64,000 bases of DNA from Eubacteriales bacterium (GCA_045594445.1 JAZNYL010000111.1:10087-74086); one strand, 5' to 3'. Counted from the stretch's first letter, positions 1,445-56,508 are shown. Made by a program: numbers and translations. The notes: generated by a model not told the origin, from the letters alone.

Positions 1445-4400
1445 TTACCACTGCAGAGTGCGACTCTTAACTGCTACACGCTGAGCTTGACCCGCATCGA
1501 TAGTATCCACTACACCGTCTCCGTTAATATCACAAGTCAAGACATTCAATTCGGTGCAAGTACGGCTCTTAACTGCAATACGCTGCATCTGACCCGCATC
1601 AATGGTGTCTACTATCCCATCTCCGTTCAAATCGCCGAAAACCGCCAAAATAATCTGATCACCCACAGCAAGTGTTGCGGTAAAACTATGTTTACCATCA
1701 ACCATGCTTGCAGGTATTTTGTCATAGCCGCCGTCGGCCTTCTTCACCAGCACTACACAAGCAATGTCATTTGTGCTTTCTACGTTGAAGGTGTTCTCGC
1801 CGACAATCCAGCCGGATGCAGGTGCTGCTACAGTGATCTCAGTTGCCCCGTATGTTACGGTTACGGAACCGTTTTCATCCACAGTTCCAACAGTTGTGCC
1901 GTTACCAATGGTAGGGACAAGGGGTTCTTTCTCACCACAACCGGTGCATACACCGTCAACGTAGGTATGGTCAGTTACGTTTACTGTAATAGTATCGCGG
2001 CTGAGCTCAGCGTTACAAACAGTACAGTATACAACGTTATCGTAACTACCTTGAGCAGTACATGTTGCGGCCTTTTCGTTCTCGACAACAACTGCGCCCT
2101 CGGTATGCGCTGCGAGTTCAAGTGCCTTGGTCTCGCGGCTGAGTTCAGTGTTGCATGCGGAGCAGTAAACGACTTGGTCGTAGGAGCCTGCTACGGTGCA
2201 GGTGGATTCCACTCTGTTCTCTACTACTGCAGCTGCGGGGGTGTGCGCGATCTTCTCAACCGTCACAGTATTGCGGCTGAGCTCTGCGTTACATACAGAG
2301 CAGTAAACTACGTTATCGTAGCTACCTTCTGCGGTACAGGTTGCGGCAACTTCGTTCTCCACAACAACTGCGCCCTCGGTATGCGCTGCGAGTTCAAGTG
2401 CCTTGGTCTCGCGGCTCAGTTCAGTGTTACATACAGAGCAGTAAACGACTTCGTCGTAGGAGCCTGCTACGGTGCAGGTGGATGCCTTTTCGTTTTCCTT
2501 TACTGCAGCTGCGGGGGTATGCCCTGTTGCAGCGGTTTCGCTATCCTTATAGGAATCACTGCAGACGGAGCAAGTATGAGTCGTATAACCCTTCTCCGTA
2601 CAAGTCGGATTGGTTACAATGGATTCGTATTTGTGTCCAAGTGCGTCTCCCTCGGTTGCGCCACATACGGAGCAAGTCTTGGGAGCGGTGCAGGTTGCAT
2701 CCGTCCACTTGTGGCCAAGTTGGGAAATCGCCTCGGTATAAGTATCGCCGCAGACGGTGCAGGTATAGGTCTTAACACCGGGTGTAGTACAAGTGGGCTG
2801 TGTGGTCACAACACCATCATTATAAGTATGCGTGATGGTTCTGGTTTCACCGCAGACGTTACAAACGGTATCGCAGCTGTTAGTGTAGGTGTGGTTTCCT
2901 TCGCAGTCAATTCTCCAGGAGCCGCTATGGGCAATGGATACATTTTGTGAATCGGTCAATTTGTATTTTGTATTATATTTATCCGCATAGTACACATCGT
3001 ATGTATACGACTTCACGGTGTGGTCACCGGTAGCGGACAGATAGCTCTTCCCTGCCACAAGATCAATGCGGCTGCCGTCAGCTGCAAAGACCTGCGCCTT
3101 GAGAGTGCGCACCGTTGCGCCAACCAGCTCGTAAGAAAATTCATAATCACCGGTAATATTTGTATACCAATAACCTACGCCACCGATCTGGGTGGTTGTT
3201 TGCGTTGTAAAACCGGATGCGACCACGATCTTACCGGTATTCGAGGTAGACTGAATCAAGCCACCAAACGCGCCGCTGTTGAGATTCAACGTACCGTTAA
3301 CGATCAACTGTGCAGAGCCGCTCAAACCTGCATTCTGCAATTGCTGAGTTGTAGGATACGGGCTTTGCGAACCAACAGAGCCGGCTGCCATAAAGGCAGT
3401 GGTCGCAGAATCGATACGGCTATCGTTCGCAAAAGCAGAATGGAAAATAAACTTGTTGCCGGTATTTCCGCCGCCTGTTTCTGTACTGCCCATATTACGG
3501 ACTGCGGTATAGTCCTGCAAACCGTCAAACACCGTCACTTTGGCGTTCACGTTCATGGTTGCACCCTCATTGACAGTCAGGGTGGCACCGGGCAGAAGCA
3601 TCATACTATTTGTGATGGTAAAGGTGCCGCTATTCACCACTACGTCATAGTTATAAGGAACAGGGAACGTAAGACTGCTCGTGTTGATAGTTGCCTTTAC
3701 GACGCCTTGGGCGTTCAAATAGATGGAAAAGTATCCAAACTCCGTATTACCGTCCAACGTGATTTTGGTTCTGCCAACGTTCTCGATTACGTTAGTTTTG
3801 GAATATTCAATGGTAGCGGTTGCGCCCTCGTGAAGTCGGATCAGGCACTGCATGTAACTCGTATCATATTCCCCAATAAGTGTAATTCTGGAATAGTTAT
3901 GATCGCCACCGGCATAGAGATCTACGTAAGCATCTACGTAGCCACCATAATTGACCACCTGCTTACACTGTACAGCCATTACGGAATAGCGGATAAAGGG
4001 CATGAGTACCGCTTCGCCGGAAGGATGGGTGATTTCGGGGCTAACAGTAATAGTGTTTTTATCTGCAACCTGGCTGGTAACGCCTACGGTGTATCCGCCG
4101 CCCTTAAAGTCATTGATGGTAAACGGCACGTACATTCTGCCGCCCTTCTTTACGTTGACGGTACCATCGCCGTAGATAAATCCGCAGGAGGAAAGCTTTC
4201 CGCTATTATATGCTGCACCATCACCTACGTTGATCGTCGCACCGTTTGCCAAATACACGTCAGAGTGTGCACCCGTGATCATACCTGTACCCGAAACGGT
4301 ACCGCCTACAGCCATAAGGCCATTTACGTTGATAGTAGTTCCGGAAGGAACGGTCAGCTTCAGGAAAGTATTGCTGTCACCGGGGGCTGCCGGGTTACTG

Positions 4401-6859
4401 ACGCTTGTAGAGGTTGTATGTGTTACGCATGCGTAAGCAAAATTACTACTGTCAGCTATCATACCGTTAGCATGCGGCACCAACAACGTAACGCCCGCGG
4501 GAATCGTAAACGTTGTCCGTCCGTCAGAACCGTACACATTACCGCCATTAATCACGGTAATCGTACCACTGCTGCCTGCAGCGGTGATTGCCTCATCAAG
4601 GTATGCGTAACTGATGCCGTCGCCTACGTTATACCTCGCAGCACCGCTCTGCACAAACACCGCGTTGAGCTGCGCATTCGCAGGCAACGTGCCCGTATAA
4701 GATGCACTTGACGAAATACGGGAGCTACCGTTTGCCCAATAGTAGAACACGTAGCCTGTAGGAACGGTTGCGTTCAAGGTGAATTGCGTATCTTTATCCA
4801 AAGTAAGCTTCTGCGCAGCGCTGCCCGGCTGCATAGTATAGGTCGTTTCATCTACCGTAACGGTATAGCTGCCGCGCACAGGAGCATTCAGAGTGATCTC
4901 CGAACCATTATATTCAAACACGGGCTTAACTGCCGCATCACCCACAGGCAGCACGTAAGGATTGGCGCGGCTTACCTCCAAGCCATCTGCATTCACCCAC
5001 TTGACAAATTTATAGAGGGAGTCGGGCGTTGCCTGCAGGGTAAAGCTACCGCTTGGTCCCGTGCCGCTATGCAAGCCTGTAGAAGGCACCGTGGTTCCGT
5101 TGACCGTATAAGAGCCATGCTCAACATACTCGAAATCCTTGTAAACGTCTCCGATCTTTTCAAAGATGGCAGTGAACTGATGACCGTTGATCGCACCAAG
5201 GGTGATCATACAACTCTCGCCACCGGGGAGCATTTCTCCTGTAGTCAAATCCTTCCAGCCTACAAACTCATAGTCGGTATTCGGAACCGCATATATCAAC
5301 ACATCCTGCGCCGACTGCCCCCAAGCATTCGAATTAACGATCGGTATGGCCAACGTCACATTGCCTGTAACCTGCGTTCTATCATCTGTACTATTATTCG
5401 AATTGTCATAATAGAAGCTGCCACCGTCAGTGGGTTTCACAAACGTAGCCGAAGTGCCGCCTGCGGATCTTATATAGATAGGTGAAATAGTCTTACCCTC
5501 ATACTGCCCCAAATTCACCGAGATCACACGCTCCATGGAGATCAGTTCGGCATTATTCAGCCACTCTAATCCGGAAGCTACAGAAGCACTTCCACCATTT
5601 TGATTATAGGCTTCGCCTACGTACCAACCTGCGAAGACTGCGTTTCTGTCGGAATTTGGCCATGCTCGCAGCCAGACAGTATCGGTGGTTCTCCCGGTGT
5701 GCTCTAACAAACGAGAGGTACCTGTAACTTCTCCCAGTTGAGTACCTTCTTTTTCTGAATGAACCGAATAAGTTCCGTCTACGTCGACATTAATCGTAGG
5801 AACATGTTCAAAATACACCGACGCGGCCTTATAAAAACGGGCAACCAAGTCGATTTTATCATCAGCCGTCTTAATTTCCTTACCATAATAGTCTTCCGTG
5901 GTAATCAGGTCGCCACTTTCTTTATCATAGAAACCTTCAAACTCATAGCCCTTTGCACAATTTGCATAAACCATTACCTTGTGGCCTATTTTTACCTTTG
6001 TGCCACTGTCGATTTCTGTATAGATCTGCGAGTTAAGGTCTCCCCATTTCTCATAATCTCTTAAAGTTACGCTGCCTGTATTCGCGTCTTCAGGCACAGC
6101 ATTCACCATGACAGAATCCGCTTTTTCAACGACGCTGTTGATGGTAAGGGTCATTGATTTTACTGCTTTCGCTGAGGAGTTTTCAAGACTAATCTCGATA
6201 TATCCCGGCTTTTCCGTGGCCGCATATACTTCGTGTGACACATTAGAGACACTCTTTTCGGATGTATTATAGGATTTTGCGGTAGTTAGTTCAGTTTGGG
6301 AAATAAAGTCGTAGTAATGAGTGGTAGATGTGGACGGATCTGTCCAATAGTAATAGCAATATACCTCCTTAGCAGCCTCACACGAAAATGAAAGATTGAT
6401 GGTCGCATTCTTCTTTGGGGTCAGCCTCAGATAGATTCCGCTTGGATTACTATTACCAGCTGTCTTAATATTTTTAAACTCAAACGTCTCCGTGCCGTTG
6501 TCAACGCTATATATTACCGTATTGGTCGTACCGTAGCCATCTGCTGTTGCCGGCTGACGTGCAACGATCTCATAATCGAAAACATCCGAGAATAAACCTT
6601 CTTTTGCTGCCGTATTTTCATTTTCTAAAACAAGATAATATTGCTGTTTCCCACCGGTACCAGTGTAATTAGTGGAGAGCACGCAGTCGGTTGACCAAGA
6701 AACATTCGTTTTAATAGTTTGATCAGTCGACTCCTCCGCATGAACATCCAAAACACCCAGAGAAGGCAGATCGAACGGTAAGTCGCTAAAAGCAGGCGCA
6801 AGCATTGAAAACACAAGGGTCAGTGCAAGTGCGGTACGTATCCATTTGCTGAAATTCAT
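1445..6859 (-). CDS. 1,804-aa secreted surface protein with a C-terminal type I dockerin, Listeria-Bacteroides-type repeats, a beta-helix-like core and Cys/His-rich modules
   Basis: ORF track. The N-terminal signal peptide is MNFSKWIRTALALTLVFSMLAPAFS. At least five repeats end in GY-x-F-x-GW-like motifs (GYEFEGFY, VFAGWY, DYEFVGWK, LYKFVKWV, GYVFYYW). The Gly/Asn/Thr-rich central region looks like a parallel beta-helix. Nine or more CxxxGxxxxxCxxC...H modules follow, then a dockerin duplicate at the C-terminus. A GGAGGA RBS precedes the ATG, 23 nt after the upstream pilin-like gene. Confidence 0.88.
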   Translation of the reverse strand: MNFSKWIRTALALTLVFSMLAPAFSDLPFDLPSLGVLDVHAEESTDQTIKTNVSWSTDCVLSTNYTGTGGKQQYYLVLENENTAAKEGLFSDVFDYEIVARQPATADGYGTTNTVIYSVDNGTETFEFKNIKTAGNSNPSGIYLRLTPKKNATINLSFSCEAAKEVYCYYYWTDPSTSTTHYYDFISQTELTTAKSYNTSEKSVSNVSHEVYAATEKPGYIEISLENSSAKAVKSMTLTINSVVEKADSVMVNAVPEDANTGSVTLRDYEKWGDLNSQIYTEIDSGTKVKIGHKVMVYANCAKGYEFEGFYDKESGDLITTEDYYGKEIKTADDKIDLVARFYKAASVYFEHVPTINVDVDGTYSVHSEKEGTQLGEVTGTSRLLEHTGRTTDTVWLRAWPNSDRNAVFAGWYVGEAYNQNGGSASVASGLEWLNNAELISMERVISVNLGQYEGKTISPIYIRSAGGTSATFVKPTDGGSFYYDNSNNSTDDRTQVTGNVTLAIPIVNSNAWGQSAQDVLIYAVPNTDYEFVGWKDLTTGEMLPGGESCMITLGAINGHQFTAIFEKIGDVYKDFEYVEHGSYTVNGTTVPSTGLHSGTGPSGSFTLQATPDSLYKFVKWVNADGLEVSRANPYVLPVGDAAVKPVFEYNGSEITLNAPVRGSYTVTVDETTYTMQPGSAAQKLTLDKDTQFTLNATVPTGYVFYYWANGSSRISSSASYTGTLPANAQLNAVFVQSGAARYNVGDGISYAYLDEAITAAGSSGTITVINGGNVYGSDGRTTFTIPAGVTLLVPHANGMIADSSNFAYACVTHTTSTSVSNPAAPGDSNTFLKLTVPSGTTINVNGLMAVGGTVSGTGMITGAHSDVYLANGATINVGDGAAYNSGKLSSCGFIYGDGTVNVKKGGRMYVPFTINDFKGGGYTVGVTSQVADKNTITVSPEITHPSGEAVLMPFIRYSVMAVQCKQVVNYGGYVDAYVDLYAGGDHNYSRITLIGEYDTSYMQCLIRLHEGATATIEYSKTNVIENVGRTKITLDGNTEFGYFSIYLNAQGVVKATINTSSLTFPVPYNYDVVVNSGTFTITNSMMLLPGATLTVNEGATMNVNAKVTVFDGLQDYTAVRNMGSTETGGGNTGNKFIFHSAFANDSRIDSATTAFMAAGSVGSQSPYPTTQQLQNAGLSGSAQLIVNGTLNLNSGAFGGLIQSTSNTGKIVVASGFTTQTTTQIGGVGYWYTNITGDYEFSYELVGATVRTLKAQVFAADGSRIDLVAGKSYLSATGDHTVKSYTYDVYYADKYNTKYKLTDSQNVSIAHSGSWRIDCEGNHTYTNSCDTVCNVCGETRTITHTYNDGVVTTQPTCTTPGVKTYTCTVCGDTYTEAISQLGHKWTDATCTAPKTCSVCGATEGDALGHKYESIVTNPTCTEKGYTTHTCSVCSDSYKDSETAATGHTPAAAVKENEKASTCTVAGSYDEVVYCSVCNTELSRETKALELAAHTEGAVVVENEVAATCTAEGSYDNVVYCSVCNAELSRNTVTVEKIAHTPAAAVVENRVESTCTVAGSYDQVVYCSACNTELSRETKALELAAHTEGAVVVENEKAATCTAQGSYDNVVYCTVCNAELSRDTITVNVTDHTYVDGVCTGCGEKEPLVPTIGNGTTVGTVDENGSVTVTYGATEITVAAPASGWIVGENTFNVESTNDIACVVLVKKADGGYDKIPASMVDGKHSFTATLAVGDQIILAVFGDLNGDGIVDTIDAGQMQRIAVKSRTCTELNVLTCDINGDGVVDTIDAGQAQRVAVKSRTLQW
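1448..1633 (-). other. Type I dockerin module (two Ca-binding EF-hand-like segments)
   Basis: The C-terminal sequence is DLNGDGIVDTIDAGQMQRIAVKSRT...DINGDGVVDTIDAGQAQRVAVKSRTLQW. This is the duplicated DxNxDGxxxxxD loop plus helix characteristic of dockerins. Confidence 0.8.
1975..2527 (-). repeat. Tandem 276-bp (92-aa) duplication inside the dockerin protein gene, each unit built from two 138-bp (46-aa) Cys-rich sub-units
   Basis: GCGGCTGAGCTC... recurs at 1997 and 2273, a period of 276 bp. The protein units HTPAAAV(K/V)EN..STCTVAGSYD(E/Q)VVYCS(V/A)CNTELSRETKALELAAHTEGAVVVENE(V/K)AATCTA(E/Q)GSYDNVVYC(S/T)VCNAELSR are nearly identical. Confidence 0.85.
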
Positions 6860-6882: not shown

Positions 6883-8061
6883 TTAATCTTGACCTATTAC
6901 TTTTTCGATCAAGTCTTCATAAACTCCAAAGCCCACATAATCTCCGTTTTCGTCCAAGAGATCGTCTCCCGTGATGTTATTGGAATTGCTACCGATGATA
7001 TTCATAGCCCCCTTGTAGCCGTTCATGGCATTCATAATCTTGTCTCGGTTTGCAGGGTTTTCCATCCATTTGACAAAATCACTGTACTCTGTTTTGGAAT
7101 TACCCTTTTCGTCTTCAACTTCTTTGGTATCTGACATCGCATCAAACAGTTTGCTGGGGTCATCGTTATATTCGTAGCCGGTCTCCTTTGCCCATGCCAA
7201 ACCCAATGCATAATGCATTGCCACGGTTGTAACGTCCTGCGTGTCGTTGCTGTTTACATAGAGAATGTAGCCATAGCCGCCCTTTTCGGCAAGAATCGCA
7301 TTATAAACGTCCTGATTGTCCAGATCCTGCGAATTTTGAGCGGTATAAACCACCAGCGCGCTCATTTTCTGCTCATTGTTATTGGGGTCGTTAATATCCA
7401 AACCGGGATACATAGCTGCAAAGATTTCTTGGAAGGATGGTTCATTCACAAGTCCAGCCAACAGGCTATTCGTGTCAACCATACCTGCTGCAAAGTCAAC
7501 CACAGCATCCACGTTGGTGACAAGATCTCCGGGGGTCATTACGTTGGAGTCTGCAAAAATGGAGCCGAGCAATGCGGTTCTGTCGGTAGGATCAACAATG
7601 TACTCTTTGCCTTTGAATGGGTAGGTCAAGGCCAATCCGGTGGTGCCTTTCCAGCTGAAGCTTGTACCATTGAAAAATGCGAAACCGCTATTGAGGAGCT
7701 TGAAGGTTTCGGTAGCATCAACGACCTGATTGAAAAGGTCGGTTAATGCTGCATTGGTTTTCTCTGCAAGGTCGTTACCGTCTGCGGTTTTCAATGCTAT
7801 AACAAATTTTCCGTTTTCGGTCTTCAGCGATCCGTCCGACTGTATTGCGATCTCTGCACGTACGTCTGCGGGATCGATACCTTCGCTTAGGCAAGCGGCA
7901 GTGAGCGCGTCGGTCATGATGTTCAAAAGCTCGTTATCCGCAGCCTCTTGTGCCTTAGGGATATAGACGCTGACGCCGATGACAGCGACGCTTGCGAGTA
8001 CCGCCATAATGGCGATTACCACGATCAGTTCAACGAGGGAAAATCCTTTGTTGTTTCTCAT
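6883..8061 (-). CDS. Large (392-aa) prepilin-type N-terminal cleavage/methylation domain protein (pilin-like)
   Basis: The N-terminus MRNNKG|FSLVELIVVIAIMAVLASVAVIG has the class III signal: Gly-1, Phe+1, Glu+5 and a hydrophobic helix. An AAGGAGA RBS lies 9 nt upstream. I do not recognise the remaining ~360 aa. Confidence 0.85.
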   Translation of the reverse strand: MRNNKGFSLVELIVVIAIMAVLASVAVIGVSVYIPKAQEAADNELLNIMTDALTAACLSEGIDPADVRAEIAIQSDGSLKTENGKFVIALKTADGNDLAEKTNAALTDLFNQVVDATETFKLLNSGFAFFNGTSFSWKGTTGLALTYPFKGKEYIVDPTDRTALLGSIFADSNVMTPGDLVTNVDAVVDFAAGMVDTNSLLAGLVNEPSFQEIFAAMYPGLDINDPNNNEQKMSALVVYTAQNSQDLDNQDVYNAILAEKGGYGYILYVNSNDTQDVTTVAMHYALGLAWAKETGYEYNDDPSKLFDAMSDTKEVEDEKGNSKTEYSDFVKWMENPANRDKIMNAMNGYKGAMNIIGSNSNNITGDDLLDENGDYVGFGVYEDLIEKVIGQD

Positions 8062-17021: not shown

Positions 17022-18083
17022 TTAGTTTACGGGCAATACACTTGTTTGATATGCGGAAATCGAAAACTGCAACGGATATGCAACACGATAGGATTTCACT
17101 ACGTTACCGTCACTGTCCACGTCCACATACGTAATATTCATCACGGTAAGCAAATCATCAAAGTTCAGATCCTCTTTGGAAAAGCTTTCACCGTAATTTT
17201 GCTTCAAATGGTCAAGCAGCACTACCCAATGGATGACAAATTCCGTGCGCCAGCCAACCTGATTGTTAAATTCCTTGCGGACACCGTTATTGGTACGTGT
17301 GCCACCCATCACATCGAAGGAATCACCACCGTCCGAGGTGGCAAATCGGGTATTTTGAGTATCCTCTCCGTCAAAGGTCGCTCCCACGTAGATCACCCCA
17401 CGCGGATGCGGACCAAAAGAATACTGCACGGGTGCAGGCGCCCCTTCCTCTTGACCAAGTCCGCCAATATCCAATGAGATTGTAAAATGATCTCCGAGTG
17501 TTGGAAAACTATCTGAGTTGAACGAATTATCTTCAGATTCCACGAGCGTTTCATCATTGACCGCAAATGCAAAGTATACAAAGTTGGTGTCCGCAGCCAT
17601 GTACATGACAAAGCCGTCCTGCTCCGTCAACTCTCCTTGGTTGGCAACTAAATTGTTTTGATCAAAAACGTCGTGATAATATGCGCAATCAAGTTCCTGC
17701 CAGTCCTCTAACGTAATCGAATTCATCGGCAAAAGAAGCTTGATCGGAGCAGTATGATGGGGCAAAGCATTCAGCTCAAATCCTATGTCGGTATATACGG
17801 GCTCAGTTTCCGGGGGTGACGTGGTATTCCAAGCCGTACCGTATTCCGTTTCGATCTCATAAGGCGGCGTGGTCTGGATTTCAACCGTCCCCCAAGGCTC
17901 GATCGGATCGATCGCAACGTATTCCGATTCATATACGTCTACCGGTGGCTCAACGTAGCCGTAATCATATTCATTCCGAATGCCTTCAAACAGCTCGGCA
18001 ACAAGGCCGTTGCCCACGTCACAGGAGGTTAAGACCGTCATACAAAGCGCGGTCAGAAGTAAAATCGTGATCGTTTTTTTCAT
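17022..18083 (-). CDS. Acidic lipoprotein with a CBM9-like domain; paralogue 4 of 4
   Basis: Lipobox ...VLTS|CDVGNGLVAEL, then AIDPIEPWGTVEIQTTPP. The CBM9-like pattern is DGFVMYMAADTNFVYFAFAVNDETL...GDHFTISLDIGG...GWRTEFVIHW. Confidence 0.8.
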   Translation of the reverse strand: MKKTITILLLTALCMTVLTSCDVGNGLVAELFEGIRNEYDYGYVEPPVDVYESEYVAIDPIEPWGTVEIQTTPPYEIETEYGTAWNTTSPPETEPVYTDIGFELNALPHHTAPIKLLLPMNSITLEDWQELDCAYYHDVFDQNNLVANQGELTEQDGFVMYMAADTNFVYFAFAVNDETLVESEDNSFNSDSFPTLGDHFTISLDIGGLGQEEGAPAPVQYSFGPHPRGVIYVGATFDGEDTQNTRFATSDGGDSFDVMGGTRTNNGVRKEFNNQVGWRTEFVIHWVVLLDHLKQNYGESFSKEDLNFDDLLTVMNITYVDVDSDGNVVKSYRVAYPLQFSISAYQTSVLPVN

Positions 18084-18115
18084 GGCGATTGCCTCCTTTC
18101 ATTTTTTTACTATAT

Positions 18116-29931: not shown

Positions 29932-30087
29932 AACAGATTTCCTTTCTGCCGTCAAGATTGGTGCTCAAAGAACGCCATTTTTCATTATACACCCATTCTC
30001 TTTTTGTGTCAAGGGTTTTTGCAAGTCTTTAGACGCAAAATTGCATTTTATCATTTCACAAATCTAATATTGGCGCCACATCTCAAA

Positions 30088-30334
30088 AAAAGTTTTCGCC
30101 CGCCTTTTTCAGAAAGGCATGGTGGCGTGTGAATATTGTTGTATTTTCAAGTGTTTTTGACGCCACCTGATGCTGAATTTCGGCAAAATTCAGCATCCAA
30201 AAGTTAACCGGCGCAGCCCTCGTCGCCTCCGCAGAGGCGAAACCTCTCTTACGCCGTTTCAATTCGCGCAGCGAATTACTGGTTCATTTTTTTGCGGCTA
30301 CTTGCTCAAAAAAAGAACGGAGATGGTTTTCTCA
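30088..30334 (+). repeat. Hairpin-rich intergenic repeat, copy A (full-length type with 5' module)
   Basis: It shares long identical blocks with 56038-56278 (AGTTTTCGCCCGCCTTTTTCAGAAA, GCATGGTGGCGTGTGAATATTG, CCCTCGTCGCCTCCGCAGAGGCG) and with 48727-48900. Confidence 0.8.
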
Positions 30335-30548
30335 GTGCAACAGAAAATACCCACCGCAAGCGCGGCGGGCATTTATACTAACTATCCCGGCAGTGTCGGC
30401 AACACTGGGAACGATTGCTCGGATGCATGACCAATTATTATTGAATTCACGCCTGACGGGACGTCGAGGGCGCCGTCCCCTGCAATCGGTGAAAACGCGT
30501 CACGCAAGGGGATCTCTTCATGTTTGCATTGTATTCATTCCGCACTCA

Positions 30549-48621: not shown

Positions 48622-48726
48622 AGTTTTTGCTTCCTTTTTTGTTTTCTACGGTTAGTTTGGGTGAAAAACAAAAAATCATGACAAACAAAATTTGGTCGCT
48701 AACACCTCAACGGAGCTCCTTTGCAC

Positions 48727-48900
48727 GATGAAAGTTTGAGTCGAGCCTTTTCAAAGGCTCGCACGGGTCGAGGGCGTGAAGACCTCGTCGCCTCAGCAGA
48801 GGCGAAATACTTTTCTCGCCGTTTCAATTCGCGCAGCGAATTACCGGTTCATTTTTTTGCGCCTACTTGCTCAAAGAAAGAACAGAAACGGTTTTCTCAC
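48727..48900 (+). repeat. Hairpin-rich intergenic repeat, copy B-left
   Basis: It aligns with 30200-30334 and 56150-56278, and as an inverted copy with 48994-49157. Confidence 0.8.
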
Positions 48901-48950
48901 ATAATAAACCAACAGCCGTAGGGTGGGGGCTTGCTCCCGCAGTACAAAAC

Positions 48951-48987
48951 AAAAAGGAAGCTACTTTACGTAAGTAACTTCCTTTTT
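48951..48987 (-). terminator. Central stem-loop terminator between the inverted repeat arms (ends the SDR transcript)
   Basis: AAAAA GGAAGCTACT TTACGTA AGTAACTTCC TTTTT pairs at 9 of 10 stem positions, with A and T runs on either side. Confidence 0.65.
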
Positions 48988-48993
48988 CTTTAC

Positions 48994-49157
48994 ATTGAAC
49001 AAACTCTCTCCGTTCTTTTTTGTGCAAGTAGGCGCAAAAGAAGAACATATTTGCTTCGCAAATTTAAACGCCGTTTTAGAATGTTTCGCGCCTGCGGGCG
49101 CGACAAGGGCGCTGCCCTTGACCTGCGAGCCTTTGAAAAGGCTTGATCCAAACTTCC
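48994..49157 (-). repeat. Hairpin-rich intergenic repeat, copy B-right (inverted)
   Basis: Its reverse complement aligns with the B-left, A and C arms, including the blocks TTGCGCCTACTTGC, AAGAACGGAGA and GCCTTTTCAAAGGCTCG. Confidence 0.8.
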
Positions 49158-49185
49158 ACCAGTGTCGCTCAACCTTGGGTGTCGC

Positions 49186-55974: not shown

Positions 55975-56037
55975 GCAATTGCTCTCACAAAGCGAAGAAT
56001 TGTGTAACGCCCGCCACCATACGGACGGCCCACTCAC

Positions 56038-56278
56038 GAAAGTTTTCGCCCGCCTTTTTCAGAAAAGCATGGTGGCGTGTGAATATTGCCGATATTTCGA
56101 GTGTGATTGACGCCACCCGATGTTGAATTTCTGCGAAATTCAACATCCAAAAGGCAACCGGCAACGCCCTCGTCGCCTCCGCAGAGGCGGAACTTTTCCA
56201 CGCTGTTTAATTTGCGAAGCAAATATGTTCTTCTTTGCAGCTCCTTGCTCAAAAAGAACGGAAACGATTTTCTCACAT
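56038..56278 (+). repeat. Hairpin-rich intergenic repeat, copy C-left (full-length type with 5' module)
   Basis: It is colinear with copy A at 30088-30334. Differences cluster as paired changes in the stems. Confidence 0.8.
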
Positions 56279-56288
56279 AAACAAAAAA

Positions 56289-56315
56289 GGGAGTTACCTA
56301 TGCAAGGTAGCTCCC
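56289..56315. terminator. Central bidirectional stem-loop terminator between convergent mgtE and the oxidoreductase gene
   Basis: GGGAGTTACCT ATGCA AGGTAGCTCCC is an 11-bp stem with one mismatch, flanked by AAAAAA and TTAGTTTTT. Confidence 0.7.
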
Positions 56316-56326
56316 TTAGTTTTTGC

Positions 56327-56483
56327 GTTGAGATAATCCTCTCCGTTCTTTTTCTTGGCTATGTAGCCGCAAGAAAAAGAACCAAAAAGAACGGCGATAG
56401 AAGTGTTTCGCGCCTGCGGGCGCGACGAGGGCTTCGCGCCCTCGACCTGCGCAAACTTTTGAAAAAGTTTGATCAAAACTTTT
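56327..56483 (-). repeat. Hairpin-rich intergenic repeat, copy C-right (inverted)
   Basis: Its reverse complement aligns with the B-left and B-right arms, including the blocks GGTCGAGGGCG.GAAG.CCTCGTCGC, GCGAAAC, TTGCGGCTAC and AAGAACGGAGAG. Confidence 0.8.
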
Positions 56484-56508
56484 ATCCTGTAAAGGTCATC
56501 CGCGCGTT

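Follow-up and report, generated by a model that had tools for sequence, protein, structure and literature searches.

What keeps the two halves of intergenic hairpins complementary when their sequences differ from copy to copy, and is the fold one of RNA or of DNA? These questions are raised by positions 30169-30277 of a 64,000-nucleotide stretch of DNA from an Eubacteriales bacterium (GCA_045594445.1, JAZNYL010000111.1:10087-74086), further referred to as the window. The first-pass annotation of the window stated that compensatory substitutions preserve at least four stems between repeat copies at this place, that the stem variants are reassorted between copies, and that selection appears to act on structure, at the RNA or cruciform-DNA level, rather than on primary sequence. 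We find that stem halves remain matched while hairpin modules reassort, that copies differ by exchange of modules, and that the stretch probably belongs to a high-copy mosaic family of palindromic intergenic repeats, in which hairpin modules are exchanged and folding takes place at the level of DNA.

Architecture of the repeats

The window contains three composite repeat elements, A (~30078-30500), B (48721-49170) and C (56028-56493). Each is planned as two inverted arms of ~150-230 nt flanking one central hairpin; in B and C the order is left arm, central hairpin, right arm. The stretch in question lies inside arm A (~30078-30320, plus strand) and holds three hairpins, stem 1, H3 and H4 (Table 1). 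Altogether, five arms and ~25 hairpins were found in 64 kb, every one of them intergenic. The core CCTYGTCGCSYCNGCAGRSGCGRAA, common to all five arms, occurs five times in the window and not once in 100 shuffles of it.

The order of modules in an arm is AAAGTTTT-H1-H2-H3-GAAAC-Px-[H4]-H5-GAACGG followed by a tail, with H4 being optional. The base of H1 is variable, and its top is constant (CTTTT-TCA-AAAAG). H2 occurs as the alleles CGAGGGC, CAAGGGC, CCAAGGGC and CTTGGGGC with a loop of 3-5 nt, and H3 has the form TCGC-NN-C, loop CGCA, G-NN-GCGA. H4 is AATTCGC-GNA-GCGAATT, single or double per arm, and H5 comprises GTTC, a T-run, a variable apex, an A-run and GAAC. Px is a 4-bp pairing between CG-NN-G ahead of the T-run and the 5' side of the H5 apex. 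Arms A and C-left also carry a 92-nt type-2 insert, which is located in the 3' strand of H1, displaces the 5' strand of H2 and supplies an 8-bp stem (GGTGGCGT/ACGCCACC) as well as stem 1. A possible duplication of CAAAAGGC around the insert is only suggestive, and a metagenome scan aimed at the insert yielded two loci.

The stem variants listed in the first-pass annotation are present in the window, with one correction. Both copies of stem 1 are perfect, GATGCTGAATTT/AAATTCAGCATC at 30169-30197 and GATGTTGAATTT(C)/(G)AAATTCAACATC at 56119-56147. Across distinct insert rows, the pair highlighted there is C:G in four, T:A in two and a C.A mismatch in another four; thus the two perfect window copies are the ends of a series with unpaired intermediates. 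H1 has the base GAGCC/GGCTC in B and CAAAC/GTTTG in C-right, H2 is CGAGGG/CCCTCG in C-right and CAAGGG/CCCTTG in B-right, and H4 is AATTCGC-GCA-GCGAATT in A and B-left and ATTTGC-GAA-GCAAAT in C-left and B-right. For H3, TCGCCTC-CGCA-GAGGCGA is found in A and C-left and the GCC/GGC version in B-right and C-right; B-left, which had been grouped with the former, has the same stem, but its loop is AGCA and not CGCA.

Several observations concern the insert. Its 5' end (30119-30160 and 56069-56110 in the window, and loci L011, L012, L034, L044, L066, L082, L119 and L120) contains a 13-codon Cys-rich frame MVACE[CYW]xxxF[EK][CY]x that ends at the TGA of TGACGCCACC and is intact in 10 of 11 copies. 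The central 10 nt of this frame are hypervariable at constant length and the ribosome-binding site is poor; the frame may be no more than a consequence of the constant length of the loop. The resemblance of ...CTGATG.../...GAAA to a hammerhead was dismissed, GATG being paired with CATC in stem 1. The arms were not taken as protein-coding either, as indels between copies break the reading frame.

Covariation and linkage of stem halves

Pairing in H1, H3, Px and H4 was assessed over 47 arms. Of 916 stem cells, 98.3% are paired, compared to 85.3% in shuffles; 140 cells are doubly changed versus 52 +/- 7 (none of 500 shuffles reaches this number), and the covariation score is 0.281 versus 0.107 in shuffles and at most 0.053 in slid controls. 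For 11 copies of the type-2 insert, 97.1% of cells are paired and the score is 0.181 versus 0.072 in shuffles (0 of 500). The paired changes, noted before in a handful of copies, thus hold up when more copies are considered, with covariation far above the shuffled and slid controls.

The same holds for individual modules. The free dinucleotide of H3 is Watson-Crick paired in 119 of 122 copies, with eight fully complementary variants, whereas 27 paired copies are expected if the two sides are independent. H2 contains the exact 7-nt complement of its own 3' strand in 45 of 49 arms, but in only 116 of 1598 cross-allele comparisons; for the exact 10-nt complement in H5 the respective numbers are 40 of 57 and 105 of 2428. 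The covarying alleles of Px are CG:24/GC:20 and CG:36/UA:10.

Because the shuffle control leaves relatedness in, a linkage test based on normalised mutual information (NMI) was added to address kinship. NMI between the halves of one stem equals 0.95 for H1, 1.00 for H2 and 0.89 for H3 (all p<0.001). Between different stems it ranges from 0.05 to 0.39 and is nearly always non-significant, two H1-H2 comparisons giving p=0.015 and 0.052. For the H2 3' half and the H3 5' half, which directly adjoin each other, NMI is 0.09. Similarly, Px has NMI of 0.78 across 20-60 nt, compared to 0.09 for the 3' half of H3 and the 5' half of Px, ~12 nt apart. As stem halves are coupled and contiguous segments of different stems are unlinked, complementarity is maintained and not inherited by linkage. 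Modules reassort freely while stem halves remain matched, which bears out the reassortment noticed earlier between the window copies.

That selection acts on structure rather than on primary sequence is true only in part. Complementarity is kept independently of sequence, but some of the primary sequence is also strongly conserved, namely the CGCA and GNA loops and the motifs AAAGTTT, GCGAAA and GAACGG.

Two further pairings were noted. If the H2 loop GCGAA and the GCC allele of H3 are combined, the 5' strand of H3 can pair with the 5' part of H2 in an alternative 8-bp helix GGGCGCGA/TCGCGCCC competing with H2 and H3; this potential exists at 56420-56445 (minus strand) and at many loci (e.g. 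L014, L027, L035). The first T-run could alternatively pair with the 3' strand of H5, but this helix was set aside, being only 7-11 bp long including G.T pairs and weaker than H5.

Exchange of modules

Orthologous sites differ in a manner that does not fit stepwise compensatory substitution, the process implied by the first-pass annotation: loci of the same species show replaced whole modules instead. Two contigs of the same species as the window (L124 and L125) have an identical SDR protein, flanks 96.4-97.8% identical to those of the window, and an element at the B site. In this element, H2 differs from the window by one compensated pair (G:C vs A:T), H3 is TCGCTCG-TCGCAA-CGAGCGA instead of TCGCGCC-CGCA-GGCGCGA (a different loop and three compensated pairs), H4 has the loop GCA instead of GAA, and the centre hairpin differs by three compensated pairs. 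The module of element B that resembles repetitive extragenic palindromes (REPs) is absent, and the left arm belongs to another type, which lacks H3 and H4. Given the background divergence of 2-4%, these differences are not point mutations but replacements by alleles present elsewhere in the family.

At the C site, genomes of three sister species (L078, L066 and L036, 88-94% identical) keep the element with different H1, H2, H3 and H5 alleles. The type-2 insert is located only in the left arm in the window and only in the right arm in L066; the left arms of all three relatives are free of it. The central hairpin with its two unlike tails (56262-56342) is exactly inverted in the ortholog L036 (~7800-7880). 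Such inversion is expected from recombination between flanking inverted arms, and the segment may be invertible. At the A site, none of the relatives with RpiR 94-96% identical has an arm: L127 and L128 have a plain terminator, and L121, L123 and L126 have an inverted doublet of REP-like GTAGGGGAG...CTCCCGCC hairpins.

Within the family, one H3 is a chimera of two alleles, with the GC left half and the AG right half, and two H1 loops are inverted (TGAA instead of TTCA). The H3 alleles in the two arms of a pair differ in nine cases and match in seven (a hand tally of 16 pairs), which is about chance; hence avoidance of identical H3 alleles within a pair was discarded. In sum, copies differ by exchange of modules, which are replaced, gained, lost or inverted, and not by stepwise compensatory substitution.

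Distribution and novelty of the family

Genomes were scanned, one per species, with a core query in which the two variable pairs of H3 were left free. At least 118 loci were found, nearly all in metagenome-assembled genomes (MAGs) assigned to Oscillospiraceae, Ruminococcus sp., Eubacteriales, Clostridia, Faecalibacterium sp. CAG:74 and Ca. Avispirillum. The MAGs with the core originate from human, ruminant and rabbit guts. The Clostridia loci contain at least 122 core matches, and among the loci listed 58 arms from ~25 uncultured Oscillospiraceae and Clostridia genomes have the architecture seen in the window. Arms occur mostly as convergent pairs, 16 of which were found among the filtered arms, with recurrent tails and centres. 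The centre of a pair is usually a terminator-like hairpin flanked by A- and T-runs, in some cases together with a REP-like GTAG hairpin. Other subfamilies have only AAAGTTT-H1 and the H2-H3 core in common with the window arms, their 3' parts being different.

Typical members were also found on L018, L049 and L091, labelled as Escherichia coli MAGs, and on L031, labelled as a Pararhizobium MAG; these contigs probably belong to Clostridia and were mis-binned or mislabelled. Five related phage contigs from IMG/VR (L130-L134) carry one copy of the H2-H3 core each, of the subfamily resembling that of Faecalibacterium CAG:74. In this copy H2 has an enlarged loop, and both hairpins lie within an outer stem, AGGGG/CCCCT.

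A search of Rfam gave no matches at gathering scores and only chance-level matches at E<=10, and a literature search did not reveal a description of the family. Among the weak matches, that of CRISPR-DR63 to the minus strand of H4 (E=2.4) was put down to chance, a repeat-spacer array being absent. The likeness of H3 to type I-C CRISPR repeats was discarded as chance for the same reason.

The mosaic hairpin repeats are thus apparently an undescribed intergenic DNA repeat family of uncultured gut Oscillospiraceae. The family is new, yet of a known type (cf. REP/BIME, BOX and bcr1), and none of the present results shows an RNA gene. Dispersed palindromic repeats with complementary change in stems are known in Proteobacteria, pneumococci and Bacillus, while Rfam and the literature search yielded none for this dominant uncultured gut group. 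The repeats have practical consequences. They disrupt assemblies, many copies being situated at contig ends; and as their covariation statistics resemble those of structured RNA, they could mislead searches for RNA motifs. They also provide a natural example of complementarity kept while adjoining modules recombine, a useful system for telling selection on folding apart from gene conversion and templated mutation.

Comparison with known repeat families

Among the closest analogs are the REP, BIME and REPIN sequences of Enterobacteria and Pseudomonas. Common features are high-copy extragenic GC-rich hairpins, inverted or alternating mosaics with linkers, stems kept by complementary variation, positions conserved with variable content, and frequent location at gene 3' ends (PMC2817692, PMC3184786); complementary stem variation is visible in the published tables of REP consensi (PMC2817692). 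Moreover, REP-like GTAG hairpins occur in element B (48916-48945) and at the orthologous A site of relatives. Unlike REPs, which are single hairpins of 20-40 nt, the arms are chains of 150-230 nt with five or six distinct hairpins. H1-H5 have no GTAG or GTGG head, the host is a Firmicute, and no RAYT was seen in ~0.95 Mb of loci. For Clostridia, a system of the REP/RAYT type would be unusual. The family is not established as a member of REP/BIME proper.

The REP-like hairpins with the GTAGGG head, e.g. GTAGGGTGGGGGCTTGCTCCCGC, are found in the window (48916-48945) and in L121 (~2240-2360) and L126 (~1115-1230), as single copies or inverted doublets whose presence varies between contigs of the same species. 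They closely resemble published REPs of H. influenzae (GTAGGGTGGGCTTcAGCCCACC) and P. fluorescens (GTGGCGAGGGAGCTTGCTCCCGCT) (PMC2817692).

BOX elements of Streptococcus pneumoniae (boxA-boxB-boxC) are likewise modular intergenic repeats of a Gram-positive host, with variable modules, strong predicted structure and no transposase of their own (PMC3184786). However, there is no sequence relationship, and BOX is a tandem array of modules, not an inverted pair around a terminator. The bcr1 repeat of the Bacillus cereus group is a Firmicute interspersed repeat of ~155 bp for which compensatory pair changes keeping a cruciform-like structure were reported (PMC3184786). It differs from the present family, where no duplication was found and sites persist from species to species, in its 5-bp direct repeats and in a genomic distribution that is not conserved. 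bcr1 is known to be transcribed. Complementary stem change is also documented for IS-derived hairpins in Borrelia (PMC3184786). SPRITE and Correia repeats, too, carry or mimic Rho-independent terminators at gene ends (PMC3184786), but Correia repeats possess an IHF site and defined terminal inverted repeats accompanied by a TA duplication, and neither feature is seen here. Finally, the H4 apex is exactly the GC-GNA-GC of the GCGNAGC mini-hairpins (phage G4 origin, ssiA), with each of the four bases occurring as N; the examples known are individual replication or priming sites and not modules of a dispersed repeat.

Folding of DNA or RNA

Covariation by itself does not separate RNA folding from DNA folding. 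Other lines of evidence were considered. When folded as RNA, arm A has an energy of -87.4 kcal/mol on the plus strand (z-score -4.4) and -86.6 kcal/mol on the other strand (z-score -3.8); the plus strand folded as DNA has a z-score of -4.7. Wobble pairs account for 4 of the 916 stem cells in the 47 arms. The mismatches in 102 distinct stems, which represent few independent events, include eight C.A/A.C and two G.T/T.G, i.e. there is no excess of G.T on the sense strand. The H4 apex is GC-GNA-GC in all 18 hairpins listed, with all four N seen. This motif is extraordinarily stable as DNA (PMC13037366, PMC3201870): GCGAAGC melts at 76.5 C as DNA, and the related RNA octamer r(GCGAAAGC), at 39 C (PMC13037366).

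Genomic context points in the same direction. Inspection by eye did not reveal a conserved promoter at the 5' end of the arms. The elements are found in tandem, convergent and divergent intergenic regions with no fixed orientation to genes; by crude calls of open reading frames (ORFs), the outer flank of the arm is the 3' end of a co-oriented gene in 23 cases and the 5' end of a divergent gene in 27. Many arms come after the upstream gene's own terminator or adjoin a divergent sigma-70 promoter, and arm A lies ~65 nt from a promoter with a 12/12 match at 30012-29984. Of the features typical of structured RNA, a covarying consensus structure was found; an Rfam match, a fixed transcription context and strand-specific tolerance of G.U pairs were not. 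As to the choice between RNA and cruciform DNA, left undecided in the first-pass annotation, the evidence leans to folding at the level of DNA or single-stranded DNA over a dedicated RNA, because of the equal folding of both strands, rare wobble, the GNA apex, unfixed orientation, no evident promoter and no Rfam match.

Origin of the repeats and alternative explanations

The membership of arm A in a mosaic family with DNA-level folding, which we consider probable, suggests the following scheme. The hairpin would be the unit that is copied and selected. Modules would be swapped between loci by gene conversion or recombination, an exchange probably aided by templated repair within the hairpin and possibly by a putative structure-specific enzyme, and copies whose stems fail to pair would be lost or repaired. 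The relevant fold would most likely form in single-stranded DNA or in DNA extruded from the duplex. Transcripts produced by read-through would fold likewise, and the elements could serve as 3'-end insulators or stabilisers around the central terminator, as REP/BIME do.

Several points weigh against this explanation. No RAYT-like ORFs (with PDHxH and YxxxNP motifs) were found in ~0.95 Mb of loci and the window, and no mobilising or binding protein was identified there. No target-site duplication or clean insertion junction is definable at the A site. The counts of flanks and orientations rest on the crude ORF calls. Px covaries over a long range and competes with H5 or knots into it, and other subfamilies have a P1 stem around H2 and H3; both Px and P1 require single-strand folding beyond local palindromes, as typical of RNA as of single-stranded DNA. 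Lastly, arms located between a gene end and the central terminator would be transcribed in sense, making an RNA role possible.

The last two points lead to the explanation in which the arms are functional structured RNAs, either elements of 3' untranslated regions ending at the central terminator or independent small RNAs, with stems kept by selection on RNA folding and Px versus H5 as a conformational switch. It would account for strong covariation in all stems, including the long-range Px, for the three-way P1-H2-H3 arrangement and for the folding-energy z-score of -4.4; the central hairpins of B and C are terminator-like, and B-right, C-left and C-right are in sense orientation between the stop codon and the central hairpin. 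Nevertheless, about half of the arms point away from the adjoining gene or sit behind its terminator, the antisense strand folds equally well, and G.U pairs are nearly absent and show no strand bias. GNA triloops favour DNA, Rfam has no match, no promoter conserved at the arm 5' end was recognized by eye, and in element A the right arm is decayed and arms are absent at the orthologous site. Hence we regard structured RNA as rather unlikely.

A more specific version of exchange assigns to the H2-H3 core the role of a recognition site for a putative structure-specific recombinase or transposase exchanging hairpin cassettes between hundreds of loci. The core has the consensus GGTCRAGGG..CCCTYG then TCGCNNC-CGCA-GNNGCGA-AA and is conserved over many Oscillospiraceae subfamilies and the five phage contigs. 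This assignment is doubtful. If true, it would imply a REP/RAYT-like or attC-like single-stranded-DNA system in Firmicutes, where to our knowledge none has been described, and Px versus H5 would be a strand-specific conformational switch; a dedicated module-exchange enzyme would constitute a new mobile-DNA mechanism in this phylum.

Complementarity could also be a purely mutational by-product, with template switching inside the hairpin during replication copying one half of the stem from the other without any selection on structure. Compensatory changes and perfect stems are known to arise in this way (PMC8794818), and the mechanism would produce changes that are simultaneous, multi-base and fully Watson-Crick with few intermediates, as observed, as well as the two inverted H1 loops (TGAA for TTCA). 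On the other hand, the loops of H2, H3 and H4 have kept their orientation and are not flipped (121 of 122 copies have CGCA, and the 18 H4 hairpins listed have GNA), and the H2-H3 core is conserved over family-level diversity and in phage contigs. Px spans 20-60 nt with other modules in between, which is beyond a local switch, and the same-species differences involve whole arms and alleles found elsewhere, i.e. copying from other loci. As the sole cause, template switching is therefore very unlikely.

A classical miniature inverted-repeat transposable element, its arms being long terminal inverted repeats moved in trans by the DDE transposase of a related insertion sequence, would agree with the inverted arms, total length of 330-480 bp, intergenic location, high copy number, presence/absence variation at the A site and a second small element nested inside arms, but is unlikely and retains little probability, since the two arms of an element usually differ in their alleles (by the hand tally, in 9 of 16 pairs for H3), sites stay occupied over species 85-94% identical despite changing content, no duplication of the target was found at the A site, where junctions are not clean, and no arm pair encloses a transposase or a gene-sized segment among the 118 loci listed.

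Features of the window

Table 1. Hairpins, arms and associated modules of repeat elements A, B and C in the window
Feature	Position	Strand	Description
Arm A, type-2 variant	30078-30320	+	AAAGTTTT motif, broken H1, 92-nt insert, H3, Px, H4, H5; nhmmer matches 30083-30117 and 30197-30316
H1 remnant of arm A	30102-30118	+	GCCTTTTTCAGAAAGGC; 3' side broken by type-2 insert
Type-2 insert of arm A	30119-30209	+	Bears stem S0 and stem 1; takes the place of the H2 5' strand
Stem S0 in type-2 insert, 8 bp	30121-30128, 30160-30167	+	GGTGGCGT pairs with ACGCCACC
Stem 1, 12 bp	30169-30197	+	GATGCTGAATTT-CGGCA-AAATTCAGCATC
H3 of arm A	30222-30239	+	TCGCCTC-CGCA-GAGGCGA; belongs to the conserved H2-H3 superfamily core
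H4 of arm A	30261-30277	+	AATTCGC-GCA-GCGAATT; apex is a GC-GNA-GC mini-hairpin
Px of arm A	30252-30298	+	GCCG (30252-30255) with CGGC (30295-30298), 4-bp long-range; encloses H4 and H5 5' strand
H5 of arm A	30282-30318	+	GTTC(A)TTTTTTTG ... CAAAAAAAGAAC, apex variable
Central hairpin of element A	30350-30369	unassigned	CCCACCGC-AAGC-GCGGCGGG; on the minus strand TATTTTCTGTT is next
Right-arm relic of element A, decayed (H2-H3 region)	30432-30500	-	Weak nhmmer match (E=0.16, model positions 50-88); place and orientation as expected
Arm B-left	48721-48885	+	H1 GAGCC, H2 with G.A mismatch, H3 CTC with loop AGCA, H4 GCA, H5
REP-like module of element B	48916-48945	+	CCGTAGGGTGGGGGCTTGCTCCCGCAGTAC; GTAG head and GC-rich hairpin
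Central hairpin of element B	48951-48987	unassigned	A-run on one side, T-run on the other; 16-bp stem called terminator on minus strand
Arm B-right	49010-49170	-	H1 with one A.C mismatch, H2 CAAGGG, H3 GCC, H4 GAA, H5
Arm C-left, type-2 variant	56028-56261	+	Stem 1 56119-56147, H3 56173-56190, H4 56210-56224
Central hairpin of element C	56287-56317	unassigned	GGGAGTTACCT-ATGCA-AGGTAGCTCCC; called terminator on plus strand; A-run and T-run at flanks
Arm C-right	56343-56493	-	H1 CAAAC, H2 CGAGGG with loop GCGAA, H3 GCC, H5 with GGCTACATAGCC apex

The central hairpins of B and C have a GC-containing stem followed by a T-run, as intrinsic terminators do, and their A-run and T-run flanks suggest bidirectional termination. 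The central hairpin of element A may be the terminator of the upstream GNAT gene on the minus strand; it has a weak Rfam match to the terminator part of Hrs13 and was not called by the terminator scan. The genes around the elements are ordinary chromosomal ones (RpiR, GNAT, GerA, SDR, MgtE, FAD oxidoreductase), and a tRNA/tmRNA scan of the window found no such genes.

Three further groups of repeats were noticed in the window. At 12215-12304, two tandem 45-nt copies lie inside a long ORF (11466-12665, minus strand); on the minus strand they read CCGTAGGG(G/A)CGAATCACGATTCGCCC, i.e. a GTAG head and a perfect 8-bp palindrome. As 45 nt equals 15 codons, a REP-like sequence may have been inserted in frame into a gene, or the copies may encode a mere peptide repeat. 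Three tandem copies with a 138-nt period at 1983-2522, inside an ORF of 1804 amino acids (1445-6859, minus strand), are probably a repeated protein domain. Repeat families at 14845-18099 are spaced ~0.8-1.2 kb apart over four adjoining minus-strand ORFs (13784-18083), a spacing that suggests tandem paralogous genes.

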